A DNA stretch of 64,000 nt from Gekko japonicus (lineage: Eukaryota): contig NW_015169789.1 of assembly GCF_001447785.1 (NCBI RefSeq), positions 886,393 to 950,392 of the forward strand, given 5' to 3'. Below, one piece after another: positions 1 to 38,600 of this stretch. How positions within the stretch are numbered: position 1 is the first letter of the stretch; each line of letters begins with the position of its first letter. The position numbers were made by a program, and so were the translations under genes. Below the pieces are notes generated by a model. It was not told the DNA's origin. It saw nothing but the letters and a program-made list of their open reading frames with translations, and ran no database searches.

Positions 1-344
1 ATACCAGTTTATGTTATAATGCTGTTGTATGGTTCATTGTGAGGCACTTAAAAAGTGCAATAAAAAGTCTAAGCACAGTGTATGTGAGGCAGTGGCATAA
101 AGACTGGGACAGAGCAGATGCATCTGTGGATGGGGAGAAATGGTTGCCTGGCTCTGAGTTTCCATGGAGGCTGGCTGGCTGGCCGGCCTGCCTGCCTGCC
201 ACGTGGGGAGCCAGAGGTTGCTCTCCTAGCTGCGTGGTGGCAAAGAGCCAGCCTCGCACTCAGGGACCAAGGAGCAGCTGGGAACTGCTCACTCAGCGCT
301 TCCTTGCCGAGCTGCATTACAACCACATCATTGGCAGGATGGGA

Positions 345-359
345 TTGGCGAGCTGCCAA
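345..359. promoter_or_regulatory. Perfect NFI full site TTGGC-N5-GCCAA
   Basis: TTGGC GAGCT GCCAA matches the Nuclear Factor I consensus, in unique DNA ~0.5 kb downstream of the exon. Confidence 0.45.
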
Positions 360-842
360 GCAGGTAGATTACAAGTGATTAGGGACAAGAGGGGAGCCAG
401 GAAACTTAAGTGCTGAGCCACAAATGCCCATAGGGGCAGCAGGGTGCTACAATAGCCTCAACAGACACCTGCCTCCCGCAGCCCAAGCCCTCTACTGTTT
501 CAGCCCTCCCCCATCTTGATGCTGGCCCATAAATTCCCAGCTGTCTCTGGGTCTCAGTCATACTGTGGACAAGATGGCTAGAAAGATGGTGTGTGGCCTG
601 CTGCTTCCTGATGGGCCTCACTTCCCCCCATTTCCATCTACTTGAAATTTCTCCTTGGGCTTCACACCCAAGTTTGGGCATGGATTTCCCAGCCCCTTCC
701 TTCCATTTTGCATTCTTGCACAGACAACTGCCTTCCTTCTTCCTTGTTCAATTTGCTTTCCACAACTGCCCTGCACACGCCAGGCATTCTCCATGCCAAA
801 GCTGATTCCCTTTTCAGGCTGTCTTCACACAGAATCTCTTAC

Positions 843-1097
843 CGGTACTGTTTGTGTGCCCGCTATGGACTGCGTGCTGGCGTCAGTGCCCGGCTGTTCA
901 GTGTGGCTCTGTGCTGGCGTATAGAGAGTCAAGGCATGCTCAGGTACTGTGCTCTGCCCTGAGTAATCCTGTGCTGGGTGTGGGTGTGGCGGAGGAGCAT
1001 ACTCTGCAGGGATGCCATTCTGTGGGGGTGGTGGGTATGTGGCTGGAGGGTAGGGCTGGGCCATTGCGTCAGGCGGAGCCGTGGCGTCCTGGTTGCC
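843..1097 (-). CDS. RBFOX3: RBFOX3 (NeuN) N-terminal coding exon, 255 nt, phase 0/0; internal ATG (MAQPY) at 1064-1062
   Basis: The translation [85 protein letters not shown] closely matches the remembered RBFOX3 N-terminus. Acceptor tcctcag|GGC (AG at 1099-1098); donor CCG|gtaaga (GT at 842-841). Confidence 0.95.
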
Positions 1098-2266
1098 CTG
1101 AGGATACATAATGAGACAAACACGCTTACTCACTCCCTAAAACTTAATGAGAAATTGTAAACTTCGTCATGGCACATCATCAACTCCTCTTCAGAAGTGG
1201 CCGATACAGATGTGTCCGAGGGCTTCTGTCAGAGTACTTTTAGCTCCAAGCTGAAATCAAAGTATGTTCTACACACCACAGGCAGTGCTGGGTTGTGCTA
1301 AAAAATGAAAAGAAAAAGTGGTAGTCCAAATTCTGCATCATAGACATCTAGATTCTGAGGCAAAAAAAAAATAACCCTGAAGCAAATTGTGGACATTTGC
1401 AGATATGTACGAAGTTATTCTGATTTTCAGAGCACTTGAAATCTTTTGGCAAGCACAGGGGAAATTAAAGGAGAAAAGGGGCCTGGTAAGTGAAGAGAGG
1501 TGGGCTGCTGGGAGGCAGGGCAGGCACAGAGAGGCTGTTGGGAAAGATATGAAGCTCTGCTCGGCTCCTTCGGATATTGCACCAGGCGCTGCCCACACAT
1601 TATAATTTTTTTAACAGCTTCTTTGAGTGGAGACTTAAAAAAAAAAAAGCATATATTTCCAGGATGTTAGATTCTGTACTGGACACCAGCTTCTATGACT
1701 AAGTTAAAAACACAAGGAATATTACACAGCCTGGTTATGGTATATCCCTGGAGGGGAGAAAGGGTATCAGTCATGGTGGGCTTCCAGGCAGCAGGAGGCA
1801 CAGTTCCAGGTCTTGCTTATTCCAGAAGTAGGGGGTGTAATATGTGATTAACTGGATAGAATTTGAAAAAGGAGCAGGAAAGACCTGAGGAACAATACTT
1901 GTGTTTTTTTTAATGTTGACCATAGTAGAGCCATTTTCTGCAGCATCAGGCCTGCTAGATTAAAAGCGGTAAAGTTCTAAATGGAGACAACCTTTACTCT
2001 GAAATGTGTATGGAAACCCAACACCATTTGATCACGTTGCTATCCAGTTTGGTGTCTCCCACATGCCACCTAGTCCCCCACTCCTGGCCTCCAGCTGGGA
2101 TTAAACGGGTAAACCAGATTATCCTGAAACGATAAGCAAAATGCTGTCAATTTATTCAAAAGCTCTGGATTTCTGATGTCACTAACTATATCAGTACTTG
2201 AAATTGATCTTTCTTCCTGTAAAAACTGAAGCAGTTTTCAAAGGCACAGGGAATATAGGGTTTACC

Positions 2267-2688
2267 CAGGGGTCATTTCATAGAAAAAGAGGTGCAGGAG
2301 TTCATTATCATAACTCACAAGCATAACATATTTGCCTATGCCACACCCCCTGCCATCAGCGGAAGTGTGTCAGAAGGCAACGCCCACCGCTCAGGCTCCA
2401 CTGGACTGTTTTGAATTGCTAGCTATTGGGGGGGGGGGGAAGCGCACAGATCTGCCCTCACAGAGGAGAGAGAGCTTGTACCTGAATTAAACTTGGTCTG
2501 AAAGGTGCCACTGGACTGTTTTGGATTGCTATCTATGGGGGGGCTCTGCAATTTACTTGGCTGCTTCTTGCTCCTTGTGGCCCAGGGCTGCTGGGAGCAG
2601 GGGGCGGGGCTTCTTGCATGTGCCCACCCCCTGGGCTCTTTAATGCCGGAGCTCCACTCCTGTGCGCTCCTGCAGGAAATGACCCCTG
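2267..2688. mobile_element. hAT-type non-autonomous DNA transposon (MITE)
   Basis: 13-bp TIR CAGGGGTCATTTC/GAAATGACCCCTG and a perfect 8-bp TSD GGTTTACC (2259-2266, 2689-2696). Contains an internal duplication beginning ccactggactgtttt. Confidence 0.9.
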
Positions 2689-3835
2689 GGTTTACCTGTT
2701 GGTACCTGCTTGCAAGATTCATTGTGGCAGTGAGTGGTACTGTTGAAAAGAGGAGAAAAGAACTACCTTCACAAGCATTAGGCAAATTTCTGAAAACATT
2801 ACTTCCTGACCTAGAGCATTTCCAATCCCCACGCTGTCAATATTTTATCTGTGTTAGCGTGTAATTTTTATGTCTTTGTATGCCTGAACTTATGTTATGT
2901 TTTCCCTATATAAAACATTTATTTGTTTAAGATTATTAGTTTTCCTCAGGTTATTCTAAAATCTCTTGCCAGTTTTAATTCCACATGGTACTATGCTTCT
3001 TGAATAAAACAGTTCTGAGGAAACTGAAGGATGAGACTGAAAAAGAAATAAGGGATGGACAGACGTCTTGTCAGTTTCAGGGGTTCTATTTTGCATTAAC
3101 CAGGGGTTTCCTACCTATCTATGCACACATATGAGGATGGGGCAGACTGGTGGATAAAATGGCCCCCTGGAAAGCTCATTATAGTGATTGTGGCCCCTGA
3201 CCCTGCTGCCCCTTCTTCTGCTTCTTTCGCAGCTTGTTTCCTTGGTGTTATAATATGCTTTCCATAGCTGTGCTGTTGCTTTATTTTTGCGTGTTTCATT
3301 ATTTGCACAGAAGTGGTATGGGCCCTAAGGCAAGGCAAGGTTGTGCATAGGTCAGTTGGCAAAGGCTCAGCAGCCAGCCTGGCCTAGCTGGGAGCCAAGC
3401 AAGGTTGAGGCAGTGCCCCATGGAGTGAGGGTGAACTGAGCTTGGAGGGATCTCAGGGAGAGGTGACTTTCTAAGTAATGGCCCATTGGGAATTTCCCAT
3501 TGAGTTTAATGGGCAGTCTGCCCCATATGAGGAAGAGTGGTGGTGACACATCCTACCTCATATGCCCCAACATAAGATCTGGCTAATTTTGTCTTTATAT
3601 TTTAACATCAACCCAGGGTTGAGCCTTAATATGAGAAGCATGTTGACTGACTTCAACACTCCCTGGATTCATGACTGGAGTGCTAACAGTAGTTCAAAAG
3701 AGTAGCCAGTACAGGATGGCTGAGCTTGCACTATGATCTCCCATACCCTCCCGTTTGAGGAGAGAGATATGAGGGTAAATGAGAACATGTCTTCCCTCCC
3801 AAAACAAAAATCAAAAAAGACAAAAAACGAAAAAA

Positions 3836-5300
3836 GACAATTACCTACATCTCTTAAAAGTTATAAAGGAAGACTTAAAGCGTTGGGATAAAATACACCG
3901 GTCACTACTAGGTAGAATAGCGACGATTAAAAGGAATATATTACCTAGATTCCTGTTCCTGGCCCAAAATCTCCCAATAGTTAAAAAATACCAATACGTT
4001 AAAGACCTGGAGAGAGCTGTAGGGAAATTCATTTGGCAATCCAAAAAACCTAGGATTAAACTTAAAGATCTTCAGAGTACCAAAGAAACGGGAGGCTTTG
4101 ATTTGCCGAATTGGCAATTATATCATTATGCAGCCGTTATGACATGGATCAAAGATTGGGCCTCACTGGAAGATGTAACAACATTAGCTCTAGAGGGATT
4201 TGACTTAGTAATGGGTTGGCACGCTTATCTATGGTATGGAAAGGACAAAATCCATTCCAATTTCCATATGCAAATCATTAGAAGATCTCTCATTAAAGTC
4301 TGGAATATAGTAAAAGACAAAACCTATACTAAAGTGCCTATGTGGGTATCACTGTTAGAGGCTTTTGCCAAACCGTCTACAATAATGGGGGAAACGAAAC
4401 AAAGTTATGGCAATCTATTAAATGAAAAAAGAGAGTTGAAGTCTGAGGAGTTACTAATACGACAAAATATCTTGGTGGGAAAAAAATGTACCAAAAGTAA
4501 GGTATAATGAAGATAAAAAATAGGGTTTTATACGAGTTTAAATGAGATTGATAAGATTTGGTTATCGTCAAGCGATAAACTAATCCAGAAATTTTATAAG
4601 AAACTGATGGAGGATTTATTTCAAGAAGAAATGATAAAAACATATATGATAGCGTGGGTAAAAGAGATCAGACATACAATTGACACAGAGCAATGGGCAA
4701 AAACGTGGAAAACGATAAAATACTTGAGGGCAACCCCATACACTGAAAATATTTATAAAATGTTATATAGGTGGCACTGGACACCGGTAAAAATCGTAAG
4801 GTGTTTTCCAAGAGCATCCAAAATATGTTGGAGGTGTAGAAGGAATACAGGTTCATACCTTCATATATGGTGGACTTGTATTAAAATCCAGAGTTTTTGG
4901 CAAAAAATCCAAAAATATTTTTAAGGATTTTAAAAATTAATATTCCATTAACGCCAGAAATCTGTCTATTAAATATGTTACCGGATACAGTAAAATAACA
5001 TGGACATATAATAATATACATACTAACACCAGCTAGAATACTCATAGCAAAGAGATGGAAATCAGAAAATCTACCCTCTATAACAGAATTTAAAATCCTA
5101 GAAATAGCAGAAATTGACAAGTTGAATACTAACTTACAAAATAAATCAGAAAAGATCTTTTGGGATAGATGGGGAATAATATATGACTGGCTAAAGATAG
5201 AAAAAAAATTAGATAATAGAGAATGAATATGCTAGTATTTAGCACTTGATGTATTAGCAAAAGAGGAATTATATGTTGAGAAATGTATAATATTTTCAAC
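3836..5300 (+). mobile_element. 5'-truncated, disrupted L1-clade LINE (ORF2 C-terminal part)
   Basis: ORFs 3779-4507 and 4607-4924 carry L1/Tx1 ORF2 motifs (SLLGRIATIKRNILPRFLFL, FIWQSKKPRI, GGFDLPNWQLY) and a CWRC...HIWWTC zinc knuckle. The sense strand is A-rich and contains frameshifts and stops. Confidence 0.9.
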
Positions 5301-5499
5301 TAGAATGCTTTTATTTTAATTCTGTGAATGAAAAATGGAAAATAAAATTATTTTTAAAAATCAGCTTGCGGTTGGCATGTAAACACACACACACACACTC
5401 TCTCCCCCATCTTTGACTTCTACAAGTTATGACGGCCATGTGGAAAGTTGCTTGAAGCATTCTCTGTGTGGCAGCTGCACGTTGAGCTCCCAAAATTGC

Positions 5500-7359: not shown

Positions 7360-8085
7360 TTATCATTTATTAATTTATTTTATTTACATCACTTATAGTC
7401 CACCTTTCCCACTGGGACTCAAGGCAGAGATTACGCAGAGTGAGAGTCAATACAATTAACAGGATGGGTTACTCAATAAACAATGAAATAGGATTAAGGT
7501 TGTATGAGGAAAGGCAGTCGGTCCCTCAGGTATGTCAGTCCCTGGCCATAAAGGGCTTTAAAGGTAAGGACCAGCACCTTGAAGCAAATCCGGTATGCTA
7601 TAGGCAGTCAGTGCAACACCTTTAGCACAGGCTGGATGTGCTCCCGAATTGGGAGTCCCATCAGAAGCCTGGCTACGGCATTTTGCACCAGCTGCAGCTA
7701 CCGGATTTGTGACAGGGGCAGCCCCATGTAGAGGACATTACAGTAATCCAGTCTCAAGGTGACCATCGCATGGATCACTGTTGCCAAGTCACCGCCTTCA
7801 AGGAAGGGAGCCAACTGCCTAATCAGCCAAAGATGGTAAAAGGCCGATTTGGCAGTGGCTGCTACCTGGGCCTCCATTGTTAAGGAGGCATCCAGGAGCA
7901 CTCCCAGACTCCTAACCTCCAGCGCTGGCACCAATGGCACCACTTCAAAGGTCGGGAGCGGGATCCCTACCCCCGAACCGCCGCAGCTCAAGCACAGGAC
8001 CTCCGTTGTCGTTGGATTCAATTTCAGCCATCTCAGCCTAAGCCAACCAGCCACAGCGTGTAACGCCTGTTCTAGATCTTCCGGT
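7360..8085 (-). mobile_element. L2 LINE 3' fragment
   Basis: ORF 7698-8201 contains WLKLNPTTTEVL, VRSLGVLLD, SAFYHL and RLDYCN. An (AAAT)n tail lies at ~7365-7385. Confidence 0.85.
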
Positions 8086-8089
8086 TTGG

Positions 8090-8785
8090 AGTTGGACTGG
8101 CCATTCCACAAAGTGGGGTCCACAATGGAGAAGGCATGTCTATGGGCAGCTTTTGATTTTGCCCATTTGCAGGGCTGCCACCTGCAGAAGACTTTGCTCA
8201 ACTCAGAATGCTGTCATAGGGGAAGAAGTGGTCCTGCAGATATGAGGGTCCAAGGCCACGAAGGGCTTTGTACGTGATAGCCAGTACTTTAAATTGAGTC
8301 TGGTGACTGATGGGCAGCCAGTGGGCTGACTAGAATGGGAGTAATACGTGTGCTCCATCTAGCTCCTGATAATAGCTGAGCTGCAGCATTCTGAACCAAG
8401 TGGAGTTTCCAAACTGATTCTGAGGTGAGACCAATGTACAGTGCATTACAGTAGTCTAGTCTGGATGTCACCGTGGCATGGATCCAGGTGACCAGATCAG
8501 CGGTATCAAGGTAAGGGGGGATATCTTACAGGCTCAGCTGAGCTGGGAGAAAGTCTTTTGTACAGCTGCATGAATTTGCTTCTCCAGCAATAACACTGGG
8601 TCTAATATAACCCCAAGACTCTTAACCGAGTCAGCAAAAGTCAGCTGAACTCCATCAGAAGTGGGGAGCGCAATGTTCTTCAGGATCTCTGCCTTCCCAA
8701 CCAACATTACCTCTGTCTTTCCAGGGTTTAGTTTCAGTTTGCTCTTAGCCAATTCACCACAGCAACCAGGCAGCGATTTAGGACT
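8090..8785 (-). mobile_element. L2 LINE fragment (different subfamily)
   Basis: LKLNPGKTEVMLVG, VKSLGVILD and TSRLDYCNALY...LVQNAAA motifs. Confidence 0.85.
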
Positions 8786-9939: not shown

Positions 9940-12090
9940 ATTGCATTTGTATTCCGCCCTTCCCACATGTGGGCTCAAGGCAGGTAACATCAAATTTCAT
10001 TTACAATATAAACAGTGATCAGATTAAAATTTAAAAATTAGAGTAAAAGTTTAACTAAAATGGCGACATAGCTGTCTATATTAGCTCCAGCAGCTGGATA
10101 GGTGGTAACCATAGGCAATTTCAGTAAGACCGCTATGCAGGGGAGGCCATGAGATTGAATGTAACCGAAGGCCTGGCAGAATAGCTCCATTCTGCAGGCC
10201 CTGAGGAACTGTAATAAGTCCCGCAGGACCCTGATCTTACGTGGGAGCTTGTTCAACCAGGTGGGGGCTAGGACTGAGAAAGCCCTGGCCCTGGTTGAGG
10301 CTAGATGGTCGTCCTTTGGGCCAGGGATAACCAGAAGCTGTTGCTCAGTGGAGCATAAGACTCTCTGGGGGGGTATATGGGGAGAGGCGATCTCTTAGAT
10401 ATGTCAGTCCTAGGCCGCTTAAGGCTTTAAAGGTTAAAACCCTCACCTTGAAGCAGATCCGGTACTCAAATGGTAGCCAGTGCAATTGGCAGAGCACCGG
10501 CTGAATGTGCGCCCACATAGGCATCGCAGTCAGTAGGTGAGCCACCGCATTTTGCACCAGCTGGAGTTTCCGGATCAGGTTCATGGGTAAGTCTGCATAG
10601 AGCGAGTTACAGTAATCCAGCCTGGAAGTGACAATTGCATGGGTCACAGTGGCCAGATCCTGAGTGGAGAGGTAGGGAGCCAGTTGCCTGACCTGCCGGA
10701 GATGATAAAAGGCAGACCTGGGCCTCCATAGAGAGCAAGGCATCCAGAAACATCCCTACATGCCTAACCCTCGAGGTTGGCACAAATGGCGCCCCCCAAG
10801 GTCCAGGAGCCTGATTCCCAACTCTACCCCACCCCGGTCCAGGCACAGGACCTCTGTCTTCAATGGATTAAGTTTCAGCCAAGTCTGCTTTATCCACCCA
10901 GACATGGTCTCTAAGCCCTCTCCAGATTTTCTGGGGCAGAGTCTGGGCGGCTGTCTATCAAAAGACAGAGCTGGGCATCATCAGCATACTGGTGGCGACC
11001 CAGCCCAAACCTCCATACCAACTGGGTGAGAGCCGCATATAGATATTGAACAGCATTGGCGAGAGGATAGCCCCCTGTGGCACTCCACACACTAAGCAGT
11101 GCCGCAGTAGACCCCCTCACCAAGTGCTACCCTCTGCCCCGACCATGGAGAAAGGAGGAAAACCATTGTAAGGCAGAACCCCTAATTCCCATGTCAGCGA
11201 GGCAGTGGGTCAATAGATCATAATCGACTGTGTCAAATGCCGTCAGATCAAGAAGCACTCGCAGCGCTGACCCGCCTCAATACAAATGTCTCCGGAGGTC
11301 ATCTGTGAGGGCGACTAATGCCGTCTCCCTCCCATGGCCAGGGTGGAAACCAGACTGGAATGGGTCCAGGATTGACATCTCATCCAGGAAGGTCTGAAGC
11401 TGGTCAGCCACCGACCTCTCAACCACCTTACCCAGGAACAGCAAGTTCGATACTAGACGGTAGTTGGCCAGGCCTGCAGGGTCCAATGATGGCTTCTTTA
11501 AGAGCAATCGTACCACTGCCTCCTTTAACCCCACCAGATGAAAGGGACAAGCTGATAATCTCTTCCAGGGGACCCAAGCTCCATTCCCATAGGCCTTAAT
11601 TAGCCAAGATGGGCACGGGTCAAGGCTGCAAGTAATAGGTTTTATAGCTGTCAGGATCCTGTCAATATCATCCTGGGAGAGTCCGCTGAAATGGTCCAAA
11701 AATGGACCCAAAGACAGATAAGGGACTTCTAGTTTCATTACTATATCAACTGTGTGAAGAGGTCCTGGTGGAGCAACATGACTGTATCTGTGGAATAGCT
11801 CACAAATCCCTCACAGCCCATAGCCAATTTTCTATTATTTTGTTTGCCTTGAGGCAGTTCAGTTAATGATCTAATAGTTCTAAATAACTGGGTCGGGTGA
11901 GAGCTCACAGACGCAATGGAGGCCACATAGAAATCTTTCTTCACGATCTTCATTACCTTCTCATAGGCTTTCATAAACATCCTATATGATGCTCTTGCCG
12001 CTTTGTCATAAGTACATCGCCACCCTCGCTCTAACCGTCTCAGGTCTCTTTTCATTCTTCATAGCTCTTGGGTATACCACATGGCTTGTT
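9940..12090 (-). mobile_element. 5'-truncated, disrupted L2 LINE (RT region to 3' tail)
   Basis: Fragments TCSLDPCPSWL, NYRLVSNL.FLGKVVE, FQSGF, QYADDAQL, SRLDYCNS and LHWLP in ORFs from 10345 to 12055; L2 tail at ~9940-9990. Confidence 0.9.
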
Positions 12091-12708: not shown

Positions 12709-12942
12709 TGCCCTGGCCTGGATAGCCCAGGCAAGTCCAATCTCATCAGATCTTGAAAGCTAAGCAGGGTCGACCTTGGCAAGTACTTGGAATGGTGACC
12801 TCCAAGGAATACCAGGGCCGGGACACAGAGTCAGATAATATCAAAGCCACCTCTCTGAAATGTCCTAGCCTCACTAGGCATCACCAGAAGTCACCATGAC
12901 TTCCAGGCCCGCAAGCACATACACACCCACACAAAATTAAAA
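12709..12942 (+). mobile_element. 5S rRNA-derived SINE with 21-bp TSD
   Basis: The head resembles the 5S rRNA internal promoter region (gatct...aagctaagcagggtcg...agtacttgga). TSD aagattgtgtcata(c/t)agattc at 12688-12708 and 12943-12963. Confidence 0.85.
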
Positions 12943-13168
12943 AAGATTGTGTCATATAGATTCCTACAATCTTGGCATGTCCTTACATTTGTATGTCACC
13001 TCTTCCCAAGGCTTTAGTGTGAATAATTTCATAAAATAAATAACAAAACCCACATAGTGAGTTCAGAAAACATTTAGACAGATGAGAAACATATGATGGG
13101 TTTCCAGTATGCTGAGAGTCAGGAGCTTGTTATGTAAATATTACCATATTATGATAATGGATATGGCT

Positions 13169-13276
13169 CACAGATCACCCATCTCCTGAACTGAGCCAGC
13201 TCGGGTTACTTTCCAATTTTTTTTACCACTCCTTCCTTCCTGCTTTGTTTGGAGTAGGGGAGAGAGAGGGTGTTTT
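13169..13276 (+). repeat. Left copy of the host-DNA direct duplication flanking the Ngaro element
   Basis: Identical to 16972-17099 apart from 14-bp and 6-bp indels. Confidence 0.95.
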
Positions 13277-13712
13277 GCCCCCATACTCGGAATAAAGAGT
13301 CAGACACAGAAAGTGGGATAAAACTATGGGCCACTTTATTAAATTCACAGTCGAGAACAACGGCAAGGGCAAATATGTGAAGCGGCACGATCCGGGCCAG
13401 GGGTCAGCGTTGACCCTTCCCCAGTTGTAGGACGCGGAGCCACCCACCCCCAGCTTGAGCCAACCTGTGTGGCTCCCCACTGGCGGGCACCACGAAAGAC
13501 ATGCCCTGGAGATCCAGCCCCAAGTCGTAGAACTTAAGCGGCCGATCGATCCATGCAGTCCCCAAGGTAGTTTGCCATATTATCCCCGGGTCGCTCAACC
13601 CAAAGGCTAATCTGGCCAAACTCCTATCGCCTGAAGTAATTAATTGGTGCTCGCGTTAGCCGCATCTCAGTTATCAGCCCCAATCCTGCCACAGCCGAGG
13701 TCAAGCCTCAGC

Positions 13713-14314
13713 TTAGGCCGATGCCCCCACCGAGAGGCTTAATGCCTCCTGCAGCCCTTGCCGTATGTCCTCCAAAAAAATGTCATTCCCTTGCTCAGAG
13801 AGGTGTACCCCATCCGGCCTATAAAGCTCCATGCATCTAGGATGAATGCGCGGATGGGGCAGAAAGCGGCCCAACCCCGCATCCAGAACTTTCTTAATAT
13901 CTCTGTTAGCTTTCTGGCGGGCCCGATCAATCCCCTCTGGGCTCAAGACATCGCGCCAGACCCTCCTGGGAATCATTGCCGACCATATTATACTCACCCC
14001 CGGCCAACGTGCCCGGATGATCTGCAAATCCTCAATAGCCTGGAGGGTCAAGGCTTTACCTTTTACCAACCCCAGGTCATTACCTCCCAGGTGCACCACC
14101 AGCACGTCAGGGGGAATGCGCGTGGGCCCCTGAAACAACAAAGACAAGAGGCCGGCCCAGTGAAGTCCATGGTGCCCCTGCCATTCAATGGTGGCCCATT
14201 GACTAAGGCCCAGCTGAGATCCACACGCAGTTCTCCTTGCCCGATGCGCTGCCCAAAAGACAAAGCTGTGGCCACAGATGAGAACCTGCTTCCTCTCAAC
14301 GGTCCCTAAACAAC
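13713..14314 (-). CDS. SGNH/GDSL-type hydrolase of the Ngaro element (~200 aa; frame open from 14333, no ATG before the catalytic Ser)
   Basis: Extending ORF 13713-14147 upstream in frame gives VLICGHSFVFWA (block I Ser, GHS at 14273-14265), then WQGHHGLHW, VVHLGGNDL (block III) and RPDGVHLS (block V). Confidence 0.85.
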
Positions 14315-14403
14315 CTACGAAGGAAATGACAGATTAATCCAAAGAACAGAAAACCATGAAGAGGAAACAGGGGCGCCCACATATTGAAACCACCGTGTAT
14401 ACC

Positions 14404-15350
14404 CTAAGTGGACGGAAAGGGGCGCGCATATGACTTATAGGCGGCAGAGCGCCACCTACCTAGTCGCTGAATGTCCGGAGAAGAGTAACCCATGGCTGCC
14501 GCCGTAGATGCTGCCCCAATCCGAAAGGAATGTGTGCCAAACCTTGCTCCCGACAAGCCCAACTTCGACAGGTCCCGCGTGGTCACTGTCCAAAATTGGT
14601 GCTTAGTAAGCGGACTGCCATCCTCATGGCGAAACAACCAGCCATCATCCCTTCCCCGAACTGCAACATAGCTAACCAGGGCCGACACTGGGCATAGCTC
14701 CGGATCCGCACATGGCCCCAGACTGAGCATAGCCCCCCTTCGGCGCTGGTCAGTCTTGGACCGCCGAACCTTTATGAAAGCCCGACCGGAATGCATGGTA
14801 AGGTCTGCCATAAACAAGGCCTGATCGGAGGAGTCCCCCTTGGACTGTGCGACCAGCTCGCTGACCCTGAGGGCCCCAAAGAAGGCTACCAGGGCTGCTG
14901 CGTGAAAGAGATGTGCCTCAAAGTCAGAGCTACAGACCTGGCCCCACACCCTCTTCAGGCCCTTGAGTACAGCTGGTGAAATCGGCTGCCTGGTGTCCAC
15001 TCGCTGGCCATCCTCCCTAGACCATCCCTCAAGCATTTTCCTAAGCCTAAAGTCATTAGTGTCCTCTCGGTATCCCAATGCCTTGCTGGCGAAAGCCAGG
15101 GCGGAAAGACGACCCTTAATAGAGCGGACTGCAAGCCCCTTACCTTTCAAATCAACGCAGTAGTGGATCAACTGGTCCACTAGCAGGGGCCAAAGCACAT
15201 GATATCCTACCTCCGACCTAAACTCTTCAAATTGGCGTATTGCCCGCTCATAAGATTTTCTGGTACTGGGAGCTATGGCAAGGCCTATTGCCCTACAGGT
15301 CTCTACCTTCCAAGCTGCCACAGCTCCGGGGGGATCCGTGCCGGATGAAG
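14404..15350 (-). CDS. Tyrosine recombinase of the Ngaro element (uninterrupted frame)
   Basis: Catalytic residues R (FFGALRVSEL), K (RRSKTDQ), HxxR (GTHSFRIGAAS), W (LGRWRS) and Y (AYKSYAR) are present, after an N-terminal APSTRKSY binding domain. Confidence 0.9.
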
Positions 15351-16900
15351 ATTGGCTCCAGGGGGTCAGCTGACGAAATCTCTCCATCTGTTTGCGAGAG
15401 AGAGCGTCAGCGACCCCGTTATCAACCCCCGGAACATGCTTGGCCAAAAAAAAATATTAAGTCTCAGACAGCGCAGCGTGAAGGCTCTGACTAGGGCCAT
15501 AACCCACGTGGACCTAGACGTCAATGAGTTAATAACGTGGACCACTGCTAAGTTATCGCACCAAAATTGAACCCTGTGATTAGCGAATGCATCGCCCCAG
15601 AGCCAAACAGCGACCAGTATGGGGAAAAACTCAAGGAAAGCTGAGACCTGCCACCACCCAATCCAGGGGCCAATTTTCTGCGCACCAATGCCCTTGGAAA
15701 AATACCCCGAAGCCCAGAGAACCTACCGCATCTGAGTGCACTTGCAGCTCTGCCCTAAGCCGAAGGTCCGTCCTCCAAAAAGACACCCCATTAAATTCAC
15801 GTAAAAACTCATGCCAGACCTGCATGTCAGCTCGCATGCTGGAAGTGACACGAGTCCTATGATGTGGGAGGCGGAGGCCGGACATAGCATCACAAAGCCG
15901 CCGCAGGAACGCACGGCCTGGGGCCACCACTTTACAAGCAAAATTAACGTGACCCGCTAACTGTTGAAGCTCCAACAGCGATACCTTCTGCTTAGACAGA
16001 AGACTGGAGACCCGGCTCAACAAATCTCGCACTTTGCTCTCAGGCAGGCGGGACAGCTGAGCTACCGTATCGAGCTCAATACCAAGAAAAGTCAAGCGCG
16101 AGACTGGTCCCTCTGTTTTTTCATGAGCAAGCTACACCCCCAATTCGGTGGTTAGCTCCAGAAAACCATCAAGCAGTGACCTACATTGCCCAGACCCTGC
16201 AGGCCCAACAAAAAGGAAATCATCCAGACAGTGCGCCACCCCCAGAAGACCCGAACTCTTTCGGACCACCCACTCCAAAAAGGAGCTGAAGCGCTCAAAA
16301 GCTGCACATGACACCGAGCAGCCCATAGGCAGTGCCCGGTCCATGTAAAACTGTCCCTCAAATGAGAAACCTAGCAGCTCAAAATCCCGTGGGTGCACGG
16401 GGAGGAGGCGAAACACGGACTTGACGTCGCATTTGGCCAACTCTGCGCCTGGACCACAGCGCCGTACCACCCGCACAGCCTGGTCAAAGACGTGTACCGC
16501 ACTGAGCATAAGTCATCCGGGATCCCATCGTTAACTGAGCTTCCCTTGAGAAATGAAAGATGATGAATGTGCCGGAATTCACCAGGTGCTTTTTTGGGTA
16601 CTACTCCAAGCGGAGAAACCCAGAGGTTGGGCACAGGGGGTGTGGCAAACGGACCCAGGATCCTGCCTTCCACCCTTTCCTTCTCAATCTTTTTCCTAAC
16701 TACTGCTTCCAAACCCCGAACAGAAGAAAGGTTGTTGGCCATAACGGGTCCCCGCGGGCCAACATATGGTATACGAAAGCCAAACTTAAAACCCTCTAAC
16801 AGATACGTGGCGTCATTTCTAAGGGGGTAATTCACCAGCCAAGCCTCAAGAACCGTCAGGTTAATGGGGCTGGGCCCCTTTACCATGAGCTTGGTTGCCT
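15300..16900 (-). pseudogene. Disrupted RT/RNase H of the Ngaro element
   Basis: Motifs SPLGVVPKK, AKCDVKSVFRLLPV, LPMGC, HCLDDF (YxDD motif with Y to C), TFLGIELD, HSDA and KHVPGVDNGVADALSR. Frameshifts near 16490, 15640 and 15363 and an in-frame stop at 16134-16132. Confidence 0.88.
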
Positions 16901-16971
16901 CCACCACCCCCTTGCCTCTTTTGCCCTCTCCTAGGTCGAGCCTTGGGGCAGTTGCTAAAGGAGTGTGGGCC

Positions 16972-17099
16972 CACAGATCACCCATCTCCTGAACTTTGTC
17001 CTGAAAACTGAGCCAGCTCGGGTTACTTTCCAATTTTTTTTACCACTCCTTCCTTCCTGCTTTGTTTGATGGTGGAGTAGGGGAGAGAGAGGGTGTTTT
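16972..17099 (+). repeat. Right copy of the host-DNA direct duplication flanking the Ngaro element
   Basis: cacagatcacccatctcctgaa...gagagagggtgtttt repeats 13169-13276. Confidence 0.95.
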
Positions 17100-17530: not shown

Positions 17531-17747
17531 GATTTTTATTCTTTCTGGAGAGCCAAAAGAACTGTCATTCCCCCCCCCCATTGTCTTAGTTGCAGCCCCT
17601 TTCTCCTGTTCCATACAAGATTAGACAGTTTTGCTTTAGGCACTTTCATGTAATACAGGAAACGAGGCTGCAAAATTCAGGGGGGGGGGGAAGGGGGAAG
17701 ACAAAAATGCTTTAACATCTCAGACCCTGTTTTCTTTTCTTTGGGAG

Positions 17748-17913
17748 AGGGGCCGTGGCTCAGTGGTAGAGTACCCGGTCTATACACAGAAGGTCCCAGG
17801 CTCAGTAACTGGCATATGTAGTTAAAAGAAGGAGGTGGTAAGAAAGGCTGCTACCTGTAATCTTGGAGAGCCACTGCCAGTCTTTGTCTGATCCAGCATA
17901 CAACAGCTTCATG
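17748..17913 (+). mobile_element. tRNA-derived SINE (Squam3-like)
   Basis: Box A tggctcagtggtagag, a degenerate box B, and body ggagagccactgccagtc shared with the copies at 21165, 52732 and 57231. Confidence 0.7.
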
Positions 17914-20680: not shown

Positions 20681-21164
20681 ATAGTCCATCATAAATCCCA
20701 CACATGTTTGCAATACAGAGGCACTAAATAACTAGCAAGGACTAAAATCGTGAACTTTGAGAAGCAGGTCCAAATCCAAAACAAAATCAAAACCACCTTA
20801 CAAAGATATGATGTTTTAACACATCTTAAATTTACTTATGTGGGGTTCATAACAGATATGGCAGAAAGTTTCTGACTAGCTCTCAAACCCCTTAAGGAGA
20901 AAGCTGTATGAGCTTTCTATGAAATGGAGGGCAAAAAGCCTATTGACTAAATAAAACCTGCAATAAAGCAGCCACTAACACTTTTTTTCACAGTGTCATC
21001 CTACTCACTCATTTGTGATATGAAATGCTGAGAACTGCTTTAATTAGAGAATATACTACTTGGGGATAAAAATTTGAGAAATCTCTGTATGTACACAGTG
21101 GCTTGCAATTTCTTCAGGTATGCAGAACTACTGCAGCCATTTATAAATTCAGCATGTTGTGGAA

Positions 21165-21343
21165 GGGCAGTGGCTCAGTGGTAGAACATCTGCTTGGCAT
21201 GCTGAAGGTCTCAGGTTCAATCCCCGGCATCTCTAGTTGAAAGGATCTGGCAGTAGGTGACACAGAGCTGCTGCCAGTCTGAGTAGCCAGTACTGACCTC
21301 GATGAGCCAATGGTCTGATTCAGTATAAGGTAGTTTTATGTGT
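21165..21343 (+). mobile_element. tRNA-derived SINE (Squam3-like)
   Basis: Box A tggctcagtggtagaa, box B ggttcaatcc, and 3' end aatggtctgattcagtataagg. Confidence 0.8.
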
Positions 21344-21897: not shown

Positions 21898-22089
21898 TAG
21901 GGTTACCAACATCCCGGAAGGGGCCTGAATTTCTTCTGGAATTGCTAGAGTGGTCAGTTCCCCTGGAGGAAATGGCACCTTTGGAGGGTAGACTCTATGG
22001 CATCACATCTTGAGTCCCCCCCAACTCAGCTCTCCCCAGGCTGTACCCCAAATATCCAGGAATTTCCAAACCCAGAGTTGGCTACCCTA
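21898..22089. mobile_element. hAT-like MITE (TAGGGTTGCCA family)
   Basis: Ends tagggttaccaac / gttggctacccta; decayed 8-bp TSD (tgctgacc/cacttacc). Confidence 0.65.
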
Positions 22090-22107
22090 CACTTACCTGT
22101 ATCACCC

Positions 22108-23040
22108 TAGAATCATAGAATCATGGAGATGGAAGGGACCTCCAGGAAATTCACAAAAACCTCCCCCTCCACACCCGCAGTGCCCGCTGTTCCACGCCCA
22201 GAAGATGACAAAAAAACCTCCAGGATCCCTGGCCAAACTGGCCTGGAGAATAAATTGCTTCCTGACCCCAAAGTGGCAATCAGCATTTCCCTGGGCGTGT
22301 AAGAAAGGGCCACAAAAACTAAGCACTGAGGCAACCCTTCCTGCACTCTCACTCATGATCTGCCTAAATTCACAGAATCCGTATTGCTGTCAGATGGCCA
22401 TCTAGCCTCTGTTTGAAAACCTCTAAAGAAGGAGAGCCCACCACCTCCCGAGGAAGCCTGTTGCACTGAGGAACCACTCTAACTGTCAGGAAGTTCTTCC
22501 TAATGTTTAGGTGAAAACTCTTATGATTTAATTTCAACCCATTGGTTCTGGTCCAACCTTCTGAGACAACAGAAACAACCCCGTACCATCCTCTAGATGA
22601 TAGCCCTTCAAGTACTTGAAGATGGTTATCATATTACCTCTCAGTCATCTCCTCTCCAGGCTAAACATACCCAGCTCCTTCAACCTTTCCTCATAGGACT
22701 TGGTCTCTATACCCCTCACCATCTTCATTGCTCTCCTCTGGACACATTCCAGCTTGTCTATATCCTTCCTAAATTGTGGTGCCCAAAACTGACCACAATT
22801 CTCTAGGTGAGGTCTAACCAGAGCAAAGTGGTACCATCACTCTGCGTGATCTGGACACTATACTCCTGCTGATACAGCCCAAAATCGCATTTGCCTTTTT
22901 AGCCACCGCATCACACTGCTGACTCCTGTTCAGTGTATGGTCCACTAAGACCCCTAGATCTTTTTCACACATACTGCTGCCAAGACAAGCCTCCCCAACC
23001 TATAATTCTGCATTTGATTTTCCTACCCAAATGCAGAACC
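22108..23040 (-). mobile_element. CR1 LINE 3' part
   Basis: (ATTCTATG)n tail at the left end; near-identical reverse complement of ~39370-40341. Confidence 0.9.
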
Positions 23041-23122
23041 TCTATGTTTCTTTGCTAGCATGTAAATGAAAAAGCATGGTGTGACATCACCACATTTGCA
23101 TGGTTCAGAAGGGACAGCCAAC

Positions 23123-23372
23123 TAGGGTTGCCAGGTCCCCCCTGGCCACTGGCAGGGGATGGGGTGAGTGGGTAGGGGTGTCAGGTCCAGGCTGGGAAAC
23201 TCCTGGAGCTTTGGGGGTGTAGCCTGGGGAGGACAAGGACCTCAGTGGGGCACAGTGTCAAAGTCCACCCTCCAAAGCATCCATTTTCTCCAGGGGAACT
23301 GATCTCTGTAGTCGGGAGGTGAGCTGTAATTCTGGGGGATCCCCAGGTCCCACCTGGAGGCTGGCATCCCTA
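23123..23372. mobile_element. hAT-like MITE (TAGGGTTGCCA family)
   Basis: TIR tagggttgccag / ctggcatcccta; 8-bp TSD cagccaac/cagccaat. Confidence 0.85.
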
Positions 23373-23494: not shown

Positions 23495-23933
23495 GGCCCT
23501 GTTCACACGAGAGGTTTTGGGCCAGGAGAGGGACGGATCGGGGCCACAGCAAATGGGCGCGATCCCACAGCAACATCTGGGAATCGTGCTGTACCCGTTC
23601 CCAGCCCGTTCCCAATCCGCCCCTCCCGGCCAAACCCTGCAGCAAAAAAGAACCACCTACCTAGGTGGTTCTTTCCGAAAGGCCGCATCACTGCCGGCGT
23701 GTCTTTCCGCCGGCGCATCCCCGGCCTCCGGCCATACTGCGCATGCTCGAGCATGCGCAGTTCGGCAGCCTCCCCCTCCCAATTGTCTCTTCCTCCCCGG
23801 CATCTGATCGTGCCGGGGAGCAACGGCGCCGCGGCTCAGGGGATCGTGGGATCCCGCTGCGGCGTCTCTTTTTTGGTGCGGCTTTTAAAAGCCGCACTTT
23901 GGCCAGTGTTTTCCCTGCCGTGTGGCAGGGACC
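23495..23933. mobile_element. CpG-rich Harbinger-like MITE with central palindrome (copy 1)
   Basis: Imperfect TIR ggccctgttcacacg / cgtgtggcagggacc with tga/taa flanks. Perfect 26-bp palindrome actgcgcatgctcgagcatgcgcagt at 23736-23761. Homologous to 35156-35587. Confidence 0.7.
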
Positions 23934-25844
23934 TAAAATGAGGCTGAAACTGGATCTAGAGCTTTAGAAACAAAACAAAACAAACACAGAGATGAGCACT
24001 GTAGTTACTAGATACTTTCTGTAACTAGTATACCATCAGATATCAATAAAGACAGCAAAATTAATGAATTTTAGTTTTGTTTTTACTGTAATTGCATTTT
24101 GGTATTTTTGTGTGATGCTTTGGGTCTCTACACCCCTCTAAGACCACTGAAGTCAGTGGGTTTAAAAGTGTAAATTGTTTAGGGTTACACTATAAACCTC
24201 TTAAATAAAAATACATAAAAATTGACACATTTTCACAGAACGTTAAGTAAGAATAAAAGAATAAAATTCCGGATGATATCACTAAAGTGATCATGATGTG
24301 TTTAATTCTCCACATATATAAACCTTCATGTATATAGTGAACTATTGTAACAGGGAGGAGAGAGAAGGGTTCCACTAACCTTCTCTCTACCACTAATATG
24401 CTAGGTTACTACACTTCTTTTAAAAGTAGGAAACATTCAAAATGTTGAACTACCTGGTAGCCTGAATTAATACAGTCCATAGTCCTAACACCAAATTATG
24501 TATAAAATATAGAATTTAACTTCAGTGGGGGTTAGAAGCAACAAAGACAGAGAGTTCAGGGTTCCAAATGATCAGAAGTCCAACAAAAATAAAAGAGAAT
24601 TGTGCCTAATTCTGAAAGAGAAGAAAGACAATCATCTGTACACTGTGTACAAGCCACCTGGCACATTGACTCAAGAATGGACTGTGCTGCATTCCAGACA
24701 TGAAATCCATACCTTAACCACAGAATCTGAGCTCCCCTGTGCTGAGAGACACAGACATCCACTTGACACACAAATCAGTGATCTGTTCTTCCCATTGACT
24801 TTGGTAATGATTGCATATTTTATCATGCCAATTCAGTTTCTTAGAATAAATTTGGCCTGAATTACTTTCAGGTCTTACACTGCTTGGATCTTCTTTCCTG
24901 CCTCAATTTCTGGTTTGCCCTTCTAAGGTCCCCTGTAGCCAGTGTTCACAGTATGCCTTTCCCCCAAAGCTCTGGAAAAGGTTCTTGTGCCATCCTAAAC
25001 TGAAGGAAAGGCTGTCAGATGAACATGTCATACAAAGACACAGGAGGTACAGCTGAGTGGGCTATATAATGTTCTGAAACTAGTGGCAGACAACATATTC
25101 TATGTTGTGGTGATATCCTGGAATTAGAGGGGATTTTTCAAAACTGGAGATGTCTCTTAAAGTAACAGACATCTGCCAGTCATAACCAATGGCTTCTGGT
25201 GACAGAGTTTCTCTCTCTGTGGCCTGTTATCATGGAAGGAGCTCACCCCCCCCCCCAGCACAAACTGATCAAAGAAGCCAAAGCTCCCAAATGTATAGGG
25301 GGTAGGGTGGGGGTAGTGTAGCAGGAATAAAGAAACCAGGAACAACATCTACTGTACTGTGCTTTCTTCCCTGCCTCTGTGCTTTATCCTCCAGCAATCA
25401 CTCTCTATGCCACTATACCTGTGGAGTATGTGGGAGTGTTTCTATCTATACAACAGATGGGGCAGCAGGGGGTGGGAGAGTGGGTGGCTGGCGGGAAGGA
25501 TGCCAGAGGGGACAGGAAATTATGTAGTGCACACAACAGTGCCACCCTTGCCATCTCCTAATGTTTCAAGCCTCAGTTTCTCCGATAAACGCAACCACCT
25601 AGCTAATCTCCATTATTAATTTGGCCTGTCTTGGAGGTCATCATCCTGAAGATGATTCCTTTCAGGGCCCATTAGACTCACCTGATCTCCACAGTGTCTT
25701 TGTGTGACACATAGGCTCAGATCTATCGCTATCTGTGACAAACCTCCTGACAGAGAGATGATCATGATGTGCGCACGCACATGCAGGTTTGTCTGGAACA
25801 GGGAATGTGTGGGGTGCTAAGACTGAGTTGAACAATTTCCATCA

Positions 25845-34989: not shown

Positions 34990-35625
34990 ATTATTTATTC
35001 CCCACTTTCTCTCAAATGGAGACCCAAAAGAACTTACACTATTTCTCCTCTCCTTCATTTTAACCTCACAATATCCCTGTCAGGTAGGTTAGGCTGAGAA
35101 GTGTGTGACTGGCTCAGGGTCACTCAGGACCCTCAATGAAGAGTGGGGATTTGAAGGCCCCGTCCATACGAGCCCATTTGGGCCGGGAGCGGGACGGAAC
35201 CGGGGCGGAGCAAACAGGCGCGATCTCACCTCAACATCTGGCGAGCGTGCCGGCTCCGTCCCCGATCCGTTCCAACGGCCCATACCGCGCCGCAAAAAAC
35301 AACCACCTCTCTAGGTGGTTGCAACCACTGGTGCGGCGCAGGCAGGGCTGTGGGATCGGCGGCGCGTCCTTGCGCCGCCGCATCCCGGCCCCCAGCCGTA
35401 CTGCGCATGCCCGAGCATGCGCAGTTCGGCAGCCTCCCCCCTCCCCTCGGACTTTTCCTCCCCGGCATCTGAGCGTGCCGGGGAGTGCTGCGCCGCGGCT
35501 AGGGGATCCGTGGGATCCCGCCGCGGCGTAGCAAGTTTGGAGCGGCTCGGAGTAGCCGCGTTTCAGCCGGCCCTTATGCCCGGGGCCACAGTCTCTCAGA
35601 TCCCAGTGCAACAGTCTAATCACTG
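34990..35625 (-). mobile_element. Old tRNA/L2-tail SINE interrupted by a MITE
   Basis: The SINE sequence ...gagtggggatttgaa resumes as cagtctctcagatcccag...aatcactg after the insertion. Confidence 0.65.
35156..35587. mobile_element. CpG-rich Harbinger-like MITE with central palindrome (copy 2)
   Basis: TIR ggccccgtccata / tatgcccggggcc; central actgcgcatgcccgagcatgcgcagt at 35400-35425. Confidence 0.7.
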
Positions 35626-38600
35626 TATGATACCGTCTCTCTCTATGCAGAATGTAGGCAACTTTGCTAACTGAGGTATAATGTTAACCCAGAAACTGGG
35701 ATTCTTCACCAAGATTAAAGTGTAGTTAAGATTCCCAGTTACTAGGGAAAAACAAACTTCCATTAGTAAAGGTGCCTGCTGTCGGACATTACAGTTAATT
35801 CAAGCTGAAGAATTCCATCTTCGGTCCTAGCATGCCATGTGAGGGAGGGGGAGGAGGAATGCAGTTTACAAGACTGGCAGTTAAACAAGTTCATGGTGTC
35901 TGAACTGAGGCTGAGAGAAAGAGAGAGAGAGAGACAGACAGAGACAGAGAGAGACAGAGAATGAGAGGGACTGCCCCAAGTTCACCCTGAAAGCAACATG
36001 GCCAAGTGGGTATTTGAACCCAGTTCTCCTCTGCTTGGCACTCTAACGAGTATATCACTTGGGAGAAAACAAAACTATGCTTATGAATCAGGAAATCAGA
36101 TCCTTTGTGTGTGAAGCTGGCGTTCTAGAAATTGTTTGAGCTATTGACACTTAGGTCACAAGAATATTATATGCTTCACATAAACACCAATGAGAACCTC
36201 TTCATCTTATCTGTGCTAGTGCAGTGGAACACTAAGAGATAAAGGAGATTTTATATTTTCCCCTTAATTCTACTTCACCCCAACCACATCCCTCTACCTT
36301 CTCAGTTTCTCTCAGTTTTGTCTCTTGTTTAAGTGTAACTGTGATGTGGCTTAAGGAGTGCTGAACATAGGAGAATATATCACTCTAGATTACTATATTC
36401 TACTAAATCAATTAATTTTTGGATGGACCCCAAAGAGGGCAATGTGCTATTTGGCTTAGGTAAACTGAGTCAAGTTTGGTGATAAACCAGGTGTAATTTA
36501 TTTATTGTTTAGAAAGAAATGCAACCAAATAAATGCACATGGAAGTAATTTGCCCTGGTTTGGGGAAACAAGGTCTGGTCAGTGTGGGTTATCACAGAAA
36601 TATACAATCCTAAGTGTGCATGCTCCCCCCCCTCCCAATTCCATGCAATAGTACATTCCAAGAACCAAACAGATGTTTTCAAAACAAAAGTTACTGAAAA
36701 GATAAACCGTTTGACCAATTTGTGTGGATGTTTGCTGCCAGTTACCACCATGGCACTGAAATACCAATACTGAGTAAATCCTTGAGGATTTATTTTTGTA
36801 AGCACTACAAGAATTAATGATTTTCATGGGAAAAAATCCATAAAAATATGACACACTGTAAAAATACTCTCTCAGACAAAATCACGTGCATGCACATTGT
36901 TTGACATAAAACAGTGCACATACACTACTCACACCCCTCACAAGGCATTGAAAAACATCTGTAATGCTAGACAAAATGGCAAAGTCACACACAAGGCCTG
37001 CATCTGCTCAAACACATACACACGCAATGGTCCTCCCCCATGCGGACACGCTCTCTCACACACATACACCACACTAATAGGAATCAGGAGCATAATTTTT
37101 CCCTCTAATTACATATTCAGCACTTCTGAGAAAATGAGATTTGGGTAATTCAATTGGACTGAGAAACAGGGCTCTAATAAAATGGAATTTGTAACAATTC
37201 CACAGTTAAATTAGTTAAATGGAGAGGAAGGAGCTGTGGCAAATTGACCCTTTGCTCTCCTAACAACTAATCAGACATTTGAACCACATTGTGCTAACAA
37301 AGTCCACGGACTGCTGCAGAAACTGTGGGGTACAACCACAATGCCAGTAAAGGAATAGAACCGAACATGATGTGTTACAGTTTGGAATAACACAGGAAGG
37401 GGATGAAGGATACTAACTTTGGTGATTTAAAAACTAAACTAGGTTTGTTTGAATATGGGGACAGATCTAGCTGTTAAGATTAGAGGGACTGCAGCCTTTT
37501 CAGATGTAAAGCAGCACCTTCCTGACCATGGTGGAAATGCAGGTTCTGGAAAGAAGAAGGAACCTAGCGACCTGAAACAAGGAAAAGAGACAGGATGCCA
37601 GACAGATTCCATTATATGCCTTCATTTCACACGTCTGCTTGAATTCATAAACCTTAAATATCAATCGTTATTATTCAGGTAACCCTGGGTGGGGGAGGGC
37701 CTCAGATGGTTCTCAGGGTTTGTGTGCCAAAAGGGTTTTACATACATTGAGTTCTGACATGAACCTGCAATAGCTGCACTCTGCCCCAAACGTAGCAACT
37801 CCTGACATTTCACTAAGGCAGCTTCAGAGTTCGGAGAGATGTCAGGTATAGATGGTTATGTGCCACATAGTTCCTATCATTCCTTTGACTACTGTTCCTC
37901 CTACTTGAAATTGGAGAAAGATACAGGTTTAACAGAGGTATGGAATTCAGGTCTTGGACAAGATGGCACACAGGCAGCTCACCCTCGCTTCATTGCATTA
38001 TTTTAGTGATTTTTCCACAATAAGTTGCCACTTACTCTGCACTAGGTAATAGAAACTAAGGCGTATGAAGCCAAATAGAGCTCAGAGGAATATTGCTTGG
38101 CCTTTTAGTTAACAACATTGTTTTTTTTCTTTTCCCTCCATAGTAACTGGAAGGGGATGGGAGAAATAACTCAGTAGAGAGAAAATTAGTCAAGAGTACA
38201 CAAACTGAGGAGAACCTCTTTCTCTAGATCATGTGTTCATACACAGGCACTGAAAGTGAAACTCAAAGTATTAAAACAAATGACATATAAGCTGACCCAC
38301 TATGAGACCAGGGCCATCAATTTGTGCTCCAAAGCATGTTGGTCCACAGACGTGGCCAACTGTCTTGGTAGAAGAACCAATGTGGACACATATAGGCAGA
38401 TGTAGTTTTTCAGACAAGCATAGCCATTTTGGAAGCACCTGCACTGCATTTAGCATAAAGATATCTAGTACTCTCCAGAATCAAGTTCTCAATAATAAAC
38501 AAAAATGGTTGTGCGACATCGAAACAGAAGCCAGTTGTGCAGAATGCTGATTGGCCTGTCCTGATGGACTCTCACAATGTCACCCTACCCTAAAACCTGG

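Follow-up and report, generated by a model that had tools for sequence, protein, structure and literature searches.

The window analyzed here, 64,000 nucleotides of the Gekko japonicus genome (contig NW_015169789.1, positions 886,393 to 950,392), carries on its minus strand, at 13277–16971, a fragment of an Ngaro-type retrotransposon in which six-frame reading and Pfam identify reverse transcriptase/ribonuclease H (RT/RNase H), a tyrosine recombinase (YR), and an SGNH hydrolase. The best explanation as a whole, to which we give a probability of about 0.75, is that the locus is a young, dead-on-arrival, 5′-truncated piece of a hydrolase-bearing Ngaro element whose family expresses YR and hydrolase by splicing them to a common leader. 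The locus on its own is ordinary transposon debris. That the lizard family makes YR and SGNH proteins by splicing onto one leader from open reading frame 1 (ORF1) is well supported, and possibly unreported. This family-level result bears on two points, the function of the Ngaro hydrolase and the expression of YR and hydrolase frames that have no ATG.

Anatomy of the Element

The locus is made up of the following features, in window coordinates.

13169..13276, plus strand: left copy of a duplicated host target, 108 bp, lacking 14 bp and 6 bp found in the right copy
13277..13712, minus strand: 3′ untranslated region, of high family depth, probably ending at the end of what is presumably the B repeat
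13340–13335, minus strand: AATAAA, followed by a GT-rich tract, within the 3′ untranslated region
13713..14314, minus strand: exon of the SGNH hydrolase, 199 codons long, with its catalytic blocks and without an ATG upstream
14315..14345, minus strand: pyrimidine tract and AG (14316–14315), phase-1 acceptor for the hydrolase; 14316 is the breakpoint of 40 RNA reads from family copies in a relative
14404..15387, minus strand: YR exon, catalytic residues present, frameshift at 15361–15365 near its start
15388..15410, minus strand: phase-1 acceptor of the YR exon, its AG (15389–15388) supplied by the Gln codon after the RNase H motif ADxLSR
15303..16971, minus strand: remains of RT/RNase H, disrupted by four frameshifts and a stop and reading CLDD, with no methyltransferase following
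16860..16971, minus strand: probable last ~36 codons of ORF1, overlapping the RT start, read from translation and taken as gag with no homolog aligned
16972..17099, plus strand: right copy of the duplicated host target, 128 bp, in the form that two relatives carry where the site is apparently empty

The YR frame matches PF00589 (E = 3.7e-8) and PF02899 (E = 2e-4). A profile search of the hydrolase, which an earlier note on this DNA had proposed, matches PF13472 (E = 1.4e-9). Identity to the closest gecko proteins is 53%–66% for RT/RNase H, 62% for YR, and 64% for SGNH. The same note had counted at least three frameshifts, a stop, and a change of YLDD to CLDD in RT/RNase H, and all of them are present: the frameshifts lie near 16487, 15640, and 15450, the stop at 16132–16134, and CLDD at 16219–16230. 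It had also described the YR as intact, which is not borne out. The frame is free of stops from 15363 to 14407 (319 codons), and its R, K, HxxR, W, and Y motifs are present, but a fourth frameshift, in a G-run at 15361–15365 inside the RNase H/YR overlap and nine codons past the YR splice acceptor, breaks the YR exon, which, read in frame from the acceptor, closes 30 codons beyond the break. The same frame is open in all three distant relatives bearing the anchor motif, and the G-run is one base off when set against family sequences in public sequencing runs (three contigs in run X1, two contigs in run X3, and 3 of 13 reads in run X10). The hydrolase was rightly called uninterrupted, with a frame of 199 codons that retains its GHS, G, GGND, and DxxH blocks.

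The copy is 5′-truncated, without ORF1 and without terminal repeats, and both this truncation and the flanking host duplication had escaped the earlier note. A few bases at the truncation point, the minus-strand 5′ end, resemble the host target. No tblastn match in the window was obtained with the gag part of P0141, a gecko protein of 906 residues; close relatives carry gag. The window contains no split direct repeats of the form A1…B1-A2-B2 (the copy is truncated and has no second A or B repeat) and no inverted terminal repeats, which could have gone with the truncation.

Two further observations concern this region. The RT stop at 16132–16134 is a three-base block change relative to family reads, which is odd for a single point mutation. 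Read depth at 15320–15481 in two related organisms from the public runs (organisms A and B) is 10–50 times that of the rest of the element, with loose ends at 15362–15368; there the RNase H end and YR acceptor are held in common with a much larger related subfamily or with a short derivative.

Proposed Splicing onto a Shared Leader

The first Met lies at codon 110 of 319 in the YR frame and at codon 113 of 199 in the SGNH frame; both frames thus lack start codons, and a route to expression is needed. Many YR homologs are 450–530 residues long and many SGNH homologs 320–450, with extra N-termini, and these N-termini are shared between proteins of different kinds. A YR form (P0003) and a gag-RT protein (P0141) are identical at 145 of 145 residues, a YR form (P0005) and an SGNH form (P0127) at 137 of 138, and a YR and an SGNH form from Pogona (P0019 and P0134) are 96% identical over 150. 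Leader cross-matches are found for 10/26 YR forms and 10/15 SGNH forms. In Anolis, XP_067322027.1 and XP_067322028.1 are annotated as isoforms X3 and X4, which differ in a short piece of the YR exon ahead of SGNH, present in X3 and absent in X4.

The window has acceptors at the corresponding places, both in phase 1: the AG at 15389–15388 for YR, and the AG at 14316–14315, after a pyrimidine tract, for SGNH. Among RNA reads of organism A, 40 have a break at 14316, with an agreement of 1 and a single upstream sequence, which is open in frame when translated by hand. The RNA/DNA depth ratio in this organism is 1.5–7.6 in the four SGNH bins versus 0.02–0.5 in 13 bins across 14672–16777.

We propose that the ORF1 of the family would open with a 5′ exon for a peptide rich in Lys and Arg, followed by two short helices and a loose linker, the exon ending at a phase-1 donor inside gag. 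Unspliced RNA would yield Gag, splicing to the acceptor in the RNase H tail would yield a leader-YR protein, and splicing to the acceptor after YR would yield a leader-SGNH protein, apparently from the commonest transcript. The hydrolase is thus probably made as a fusion of basic peptide, helices, and esterase, and the shared leader would most likely serve as a tag for RNA binding or nuclear targeting and for self-assembly, by which YR and esterase enter the Gag ribonucleoprotein.

Several points weigh against this scheme. The leader-fused proteins are predicted gene models. The RNA/DNA ratio is also high at 14348–14671 (1.2–1.3) and at 16778–16939 (2.4), which a three-isoform model leaves unexplained. 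The junction reads come from other copies in organism A and from an unstranded library, the exon upstream of the 14316 junction may be a host exon, and no YR splice junction appears among the matches listed for organism A RNA. The public runs list no RNA run for the window stretch itself.

The founding 2004 Ngaro paper is said to mention introns in some Ngaro elements. Our literature search, which did not extend to the founding Ngaro papers, returned no paper on Ngaro splicing or on squamate hydrolase-bearing Ngaro elements. It also returned no account of this Ngaro splicing in the accessible portions of PMC9210276, PMC6681497, PMC7192593, and PMC4157794, nor in those of PMC13465315, PMC2632668, PMC9004415, and PMC3783388, supplements aside. 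If the scheme is true, leader fusions and not bare ORFs are the right proteins to study, and many lizard gene models named "uncharacterized" or "XerD homolog" are Ngaro isoforms.

Three lizard host-gene models (P0126, P0129, and P0131; keratin, vomeronasal receptor, and ZNF318) are fused to an SGNH hydrolase. Host transcripts may be caught by the strong SGNH acceptor, which would offer a way to exonization.

Conservation in Distant Loci

A metagenome scan returned 29 loci, most of them 26%–39% identical, and YR lies upstream of SGNH in 12 of these. Together with the window they make 30 sequences, half of which (15) match the hydrolase start motif. In the loci matching this motif we scored the best acceptor blind to phase, and it falls in phase 1 in 12/15 loci, or in 9 of 11 similarity groups (p = 0.0014); the phase-1 groups are mostly distant relatives, and a random-anchor control gives even phases. 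Nine of the 12 phase-1 loci have no in-frame Met. The YR anchor occurs in 4/9 sequences, with the phase-1 frame open into YR in three distant loci and closed in the window, and the residue that supplies the AG of the YR acceptor is Gln in 101 of 112 homologs.

Among these loci, L008 and L010 have arginine-rich ORF1 starts, and a search for ORF1 donors produced one phase-1 candidate (L008) and none in the three other loci examined. Both loci are arranged in the order SGNH, then ORF1/gag, then RT (L008 at 1329–5491, L010 at 126–3044); such a permuted order is expected of collapsed direct repeats, tandem copies, or circles.

Counting against a conserved scheme, 15/30 sequences have no match to the hydrolase start motif, and 3/15 loci have a phase-0 acceptor with an ATG, none of these three with a linked RT or YR. 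A set of SGNH homologs (L022–L025 and L027) shows the phase-0 acceptor and ATG and has no linked RT or YR; these homologs may belong to a different element or represent a domesticated gene. None of the 46 pattern matches among viral contigs was a relative. In the ESM Atlas, SGNH clusters come from chordates, molluscs, and cnidarians, which we treat as a lead only.

Decay across the Three ORFs

The earlier note had offered two accounts of the uneven breaks: chance in a young copy, or retention of a YR-hydrolase module. We scored this one copy at conserved columns derived from 20 (RT/RNase H), 20 (YR), and 15 (SGNH) selected homologs. At columns conserved at 90% or more, changes number 9/208 in RT/RNase H, 4/105 in YR, and 1/48 in SGNH (Fisher p = 0.78); at 80% they number 10/263, 8/127, and 4/73 (p = 0.28). 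For the breaks themselves, 4/5 in the RT-only part gives p = 0.17 and 4/4 gives p = 0.056. Three of the four frameshifts are single-base differences in mononucleotide runs, and runs of at least five number 15 in the RT/RNase H-only part, two in the overlap, two in YR, and four in SGNH. RT/RNase H has more frameshifts by chance and through its larger number of such runs. Against this, scoring the shared G-run break as RT-only gives 5/5 (p = 0.035), and with so few columns (48 for SGNH) weak selection would escape notice. Decay appears neutral in all three ORFs; retention is not supported, at low power.

Chance in a young copy is supported, with amino-acid decay even over the ORFs. An exapted host gene, in which the module is kept while RT decays, is most improbable. 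In its favor, YR and SGNH keep their catalytic residues, the SGNH exon and its acceptor are unbroken, other lizards have the host-gene models fused to hydrolases described above, and p is 0.035–0.056 if breaks are counted as the earlier note did. But decay is even, the YR exon is frameshifted, the frames have no start codons, the ORF1 exon that would carry one is lost, and the site is apparently empty in two relatives. A scan of the 44 long ORFs of the window (short exons fall outside it) found no host protein family beyond LINE (long interspersed nuclear element) RT pieces and one sub-threshold match. Neither ORF-limited constraint nor an expressible frame, the marks of a domesticated gene, was found here, again at low power.

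Selection could instead have acted on the element, in a non-autonomous sub-lineage that lost its RT function earlier, kept its hydrolase (and YR), and was mobilized in trans. DIRS-1 RT is described as acting in trans in the accessible text of PMC7192593, most family reads of organism A are less than 90% alike and its longest contigs 8%–15% different, and five disabling changes are many for a young insertion. We nonetheless regard such a sub-lineage as quite unlikely: the stop at 16132–16134 and the G-run break are missing from family contigs and reads, amino-acid decay has no RT bias, and in every ORF the excess of changes over homologs amounts to only a few percent of the conserved sites.

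Polishing an assembly is difficult in repeats, and three of the four frameshifts are single-base and in runs, as they would be if some were assembly errors and the real copy less broken. This is unlikely, as run errors do not account for the stop, the CLDD change, or a larger deletion near 15640, and the copy is dead anyway because it is 5′-truncated.

Insertion and Age

The duplicated host copies (13169–13276 and 16972–17099) differ by no substitutions in 108 bp (<2.7%) and by gaps of 14 and 6 bp. The CpG observed/expected ratio is 0.53–0.72 within the element versus 0.22–0.35 outside. Since the duplicates differ by <2.7% and CpG is largely kept, the insertion is young. The duplicated sequence is single-copy host DNA: no raw reads, and just three contigs in run X1 and one in run X3, fit two places. 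We had considered the flanking repeat as the Ngaro A1/A2 pair; this is ruled out, as it is single-copy host DNA and occurs once in relatives.

An orthologous copy in relatives would have pointed to retention, and the site instead looks empty in both organisms with contigs there. A contig of organism B tracks the left flank at 12890–13168 and then departs; a contig of organism A begins at 16972, which is the equivalent position within the duplication. The depth of organism B in the bin 13052–13213 (5.34) is exactly the contribution of that one contig, and organism A differs from the window by seven substitutions and three gap letters in 382 bp. Judged from contig ends and depth, both organisms apparently have an empty site with one long-form copy of the duplication; against this, no row for the empty-site joint appears among those listed.

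A LINE-made retrocopy of unspliced Ngaro RNA, inserted by target-primed reverse transcription, would account for the truncated 5′ end, for a run of T at the 3′ junction, and for the flanking duplication, and LINE fragments are common in the window. We consider this doubtful. Most target duplications of LINEs are no longer than 20 bp in the accessible text of PMC6007223 and PMC13295347, versus 128 bp and gapped here; the element has no poly(A) tail; and ~60 nucleotides are kept past AATAAA, including the GT-rich tract, so that the mRNA cleavage site is probably not where the copy ends. Long duplications as a signature of RTE/Bov-B elements were unsupported by the available parts of the same two papers, which covered 10–49 bp only.

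Integration by recombinase should have preserved the termini of the element. DIRS-1 is reported to make linear single-stranded cDNA (PMC7192593, as accessible), so capture of incomplete cDNA at a break is our preferred route. The piece would then have been inserted, with the 128-bp target duplication, most likely as an incomplete cDNA caught during break repair and not by its own recombinase.

Other Features of the Window

On the plus strand, 3779–4924 has two A-rich frames and a Cys-His motif, with only a sub-threshold Pfam match (NNH2); it reads like what we take to be the C-terminal part of an L1/Tx1-type ORF2. Decayed LINE reverse-transcriptase fragments lie at 7698–8213 and 10038–12058 (minus) and 39046–39468 (plus), with RVT_1 matches at 11280–11810 and 39046–39465; these are presumably L2- and CR1-like. 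High-copy repeats resembling short interspersed nuclear elements (~12710–12930, 17747–17828, and 21162–21243) we assume to be 5S- and tRNA-derived. At 21945–23311, two 50-bp inverted repeats are separated by 1.3 kb; related GC-rich stretches at 23495–23941 and 35109–35683 look like a palindromic non-autonomous DNA transposon; and 46100–46236 is an assembly gap of 137 N.

Placement among YR Retrotransposons

The call of an Ngaro-type element from a squamate is supported. The order is RT/RNase H followed by an overlapping YR ORF, with an SGNH ORF after YR as in the amphibian type, and the best named matches are gecko proteins. No methyltransferase follows RNase H, where the window frame ends ~30 codons past ADxLSR; 108/112 homologs with this motif end within 51 residues of it, and none of 120 RT/RNase H matches has a methyltransferase Pfam family. 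In a 44-row RT tree of selected search matches, which holds no DIRS1 or PAT reference, the copy nests with gecko and anole RTs (94/87), and amphibian and sea-urchin groups stand apart from the gecko-anole group.

In the accessible text of the papers concerned, DIRS and PAT carry a methylase and Ngaro does not, some Ngaro elements having a hydrolase instead (PMC7192593, PMC4157794, PMC9210276). DIRS1-like and PAT-like elements are alike to ours in having RT/RNase H and YR (PMC7192593, PMC4157794, PMC6681497, in part) but carry a methyltransferase, which is absent from this element and its 120 RT/RNase H matches and which truncation could not have removed from after RNase H. DIRS1-like elements, as the same portions describe them, also have inverted repeats; neither these nor an internal complementary region was seen here.

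Hydrolase-bearing Ngaro elements are already known from amphibians, and the window copy is a new squamate member, as a dead fragment. Those described run gag, RT/RNase H, YR, SGNH; the copy shares this order from RT/RNase H onward, the overlapping frames, and the lack of a methyltransferase, and differs in being squamate, truncated, and without split direct repeats. The paper describing them treats the four ORFs as separate, and neither "splic" nor "intron" occurs in it. With the present family, the range of these elements widens from amphibians to geckos, anoles, agamids, cordylids, amphisbaenians, and distant hosts.

The Hydrolase and Its Leader Compared with LINE ORF1 Proteins

The Ngaro hydrolase is said to have "no proven function" in the accessible part of PMC9210276. 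Our model of the copy in the window has an SGNH fold (predicted local distance difference test score 89), with the Ser, Gly, Asn, and His blocks present. A fold search matched many SGNH structures. A profile of the hydrolase compared with the Protein Data Bank gave a sole sequence match, the ORF1p esterase of ZfL2-1 (4c1b, E = 2.8e-5). The leader has a net charge of at least +6 in 24/27 proteins and two [RK]hxxhE motifs in 20/27, and the model of P0121 consists of a disordered basic end, helices at 36–54 and 76–95, a loose linker, and the SGNH domain.

ZfL2-1 ORF1p is described, in the available text of PMC3905857, as combining a coiled coil and an arginine-rich motif with an esterase able to bind negatively charged phospholipids, and L1 ORF1p, in that of PMC5940361, as having RhxxhE motifs and a basic N-terminus. 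By analogy, the Ngaro esterase would act on or bind membrane lipids, as proposed for ZfL2-1 ORF1p, and the shared leader may tag Gag, YR, and esterase into one particle whose esterase engages membranes. If the splicing scheme is true, the esterase is directly comparable with the ZfL2-1 lipid model. In its widest form the proposal takes in lizards, frogs, and distant animals alike: their hydrolase-bearing Ngaro elements would use alternative splicing of a retrovirus-like kind, as yet undescribed, that joins a leader to YR or SGNH via conserved phase-1 acceptors, with the esterase isoform dominant, the leader co-assembling Gag, YR, and esterase in one particle, and the hydrolase a spliced functional counterpart of LINE ORF1p esterases; to this we give even odds.

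Two points tell against the ORF1p comparison: 4c1b ranks only 20th by fold, and the basic motif of ZfL2-1 follows the coiled coil, whereas the basic peptide of the Ngaro leader precedes the helices. The words "Ngaro" and "DIRS" do not occur in the accessible portion of the ZfL2-1 paper (PMC3905857). The L1 ORF1p N-terminus is alike in its positive charge and in having RhxxhE motifs in the coiled coil (PMC5940361, in part); that coiled coil is long and trimeric and is joined to an RNA recognition motif, and we claim no homology, as the motif is only six residues long. Zebrafish ZfL2-1 ORF1p, again from what is accessible of its description, is alike in its components: ahead of an SGNH esterase it has a helical sequence for oligomerization, a basic peptide that binds RNA, and a linker of poor conservation. 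ZfL2-1, an L2/CR1-type LINE, encodes this protein in one ORF1 and forms an antiparallel dimer from it, whereas the Ngaro protein would be assembled by splicing, with a leader held in common with Gag and YR.

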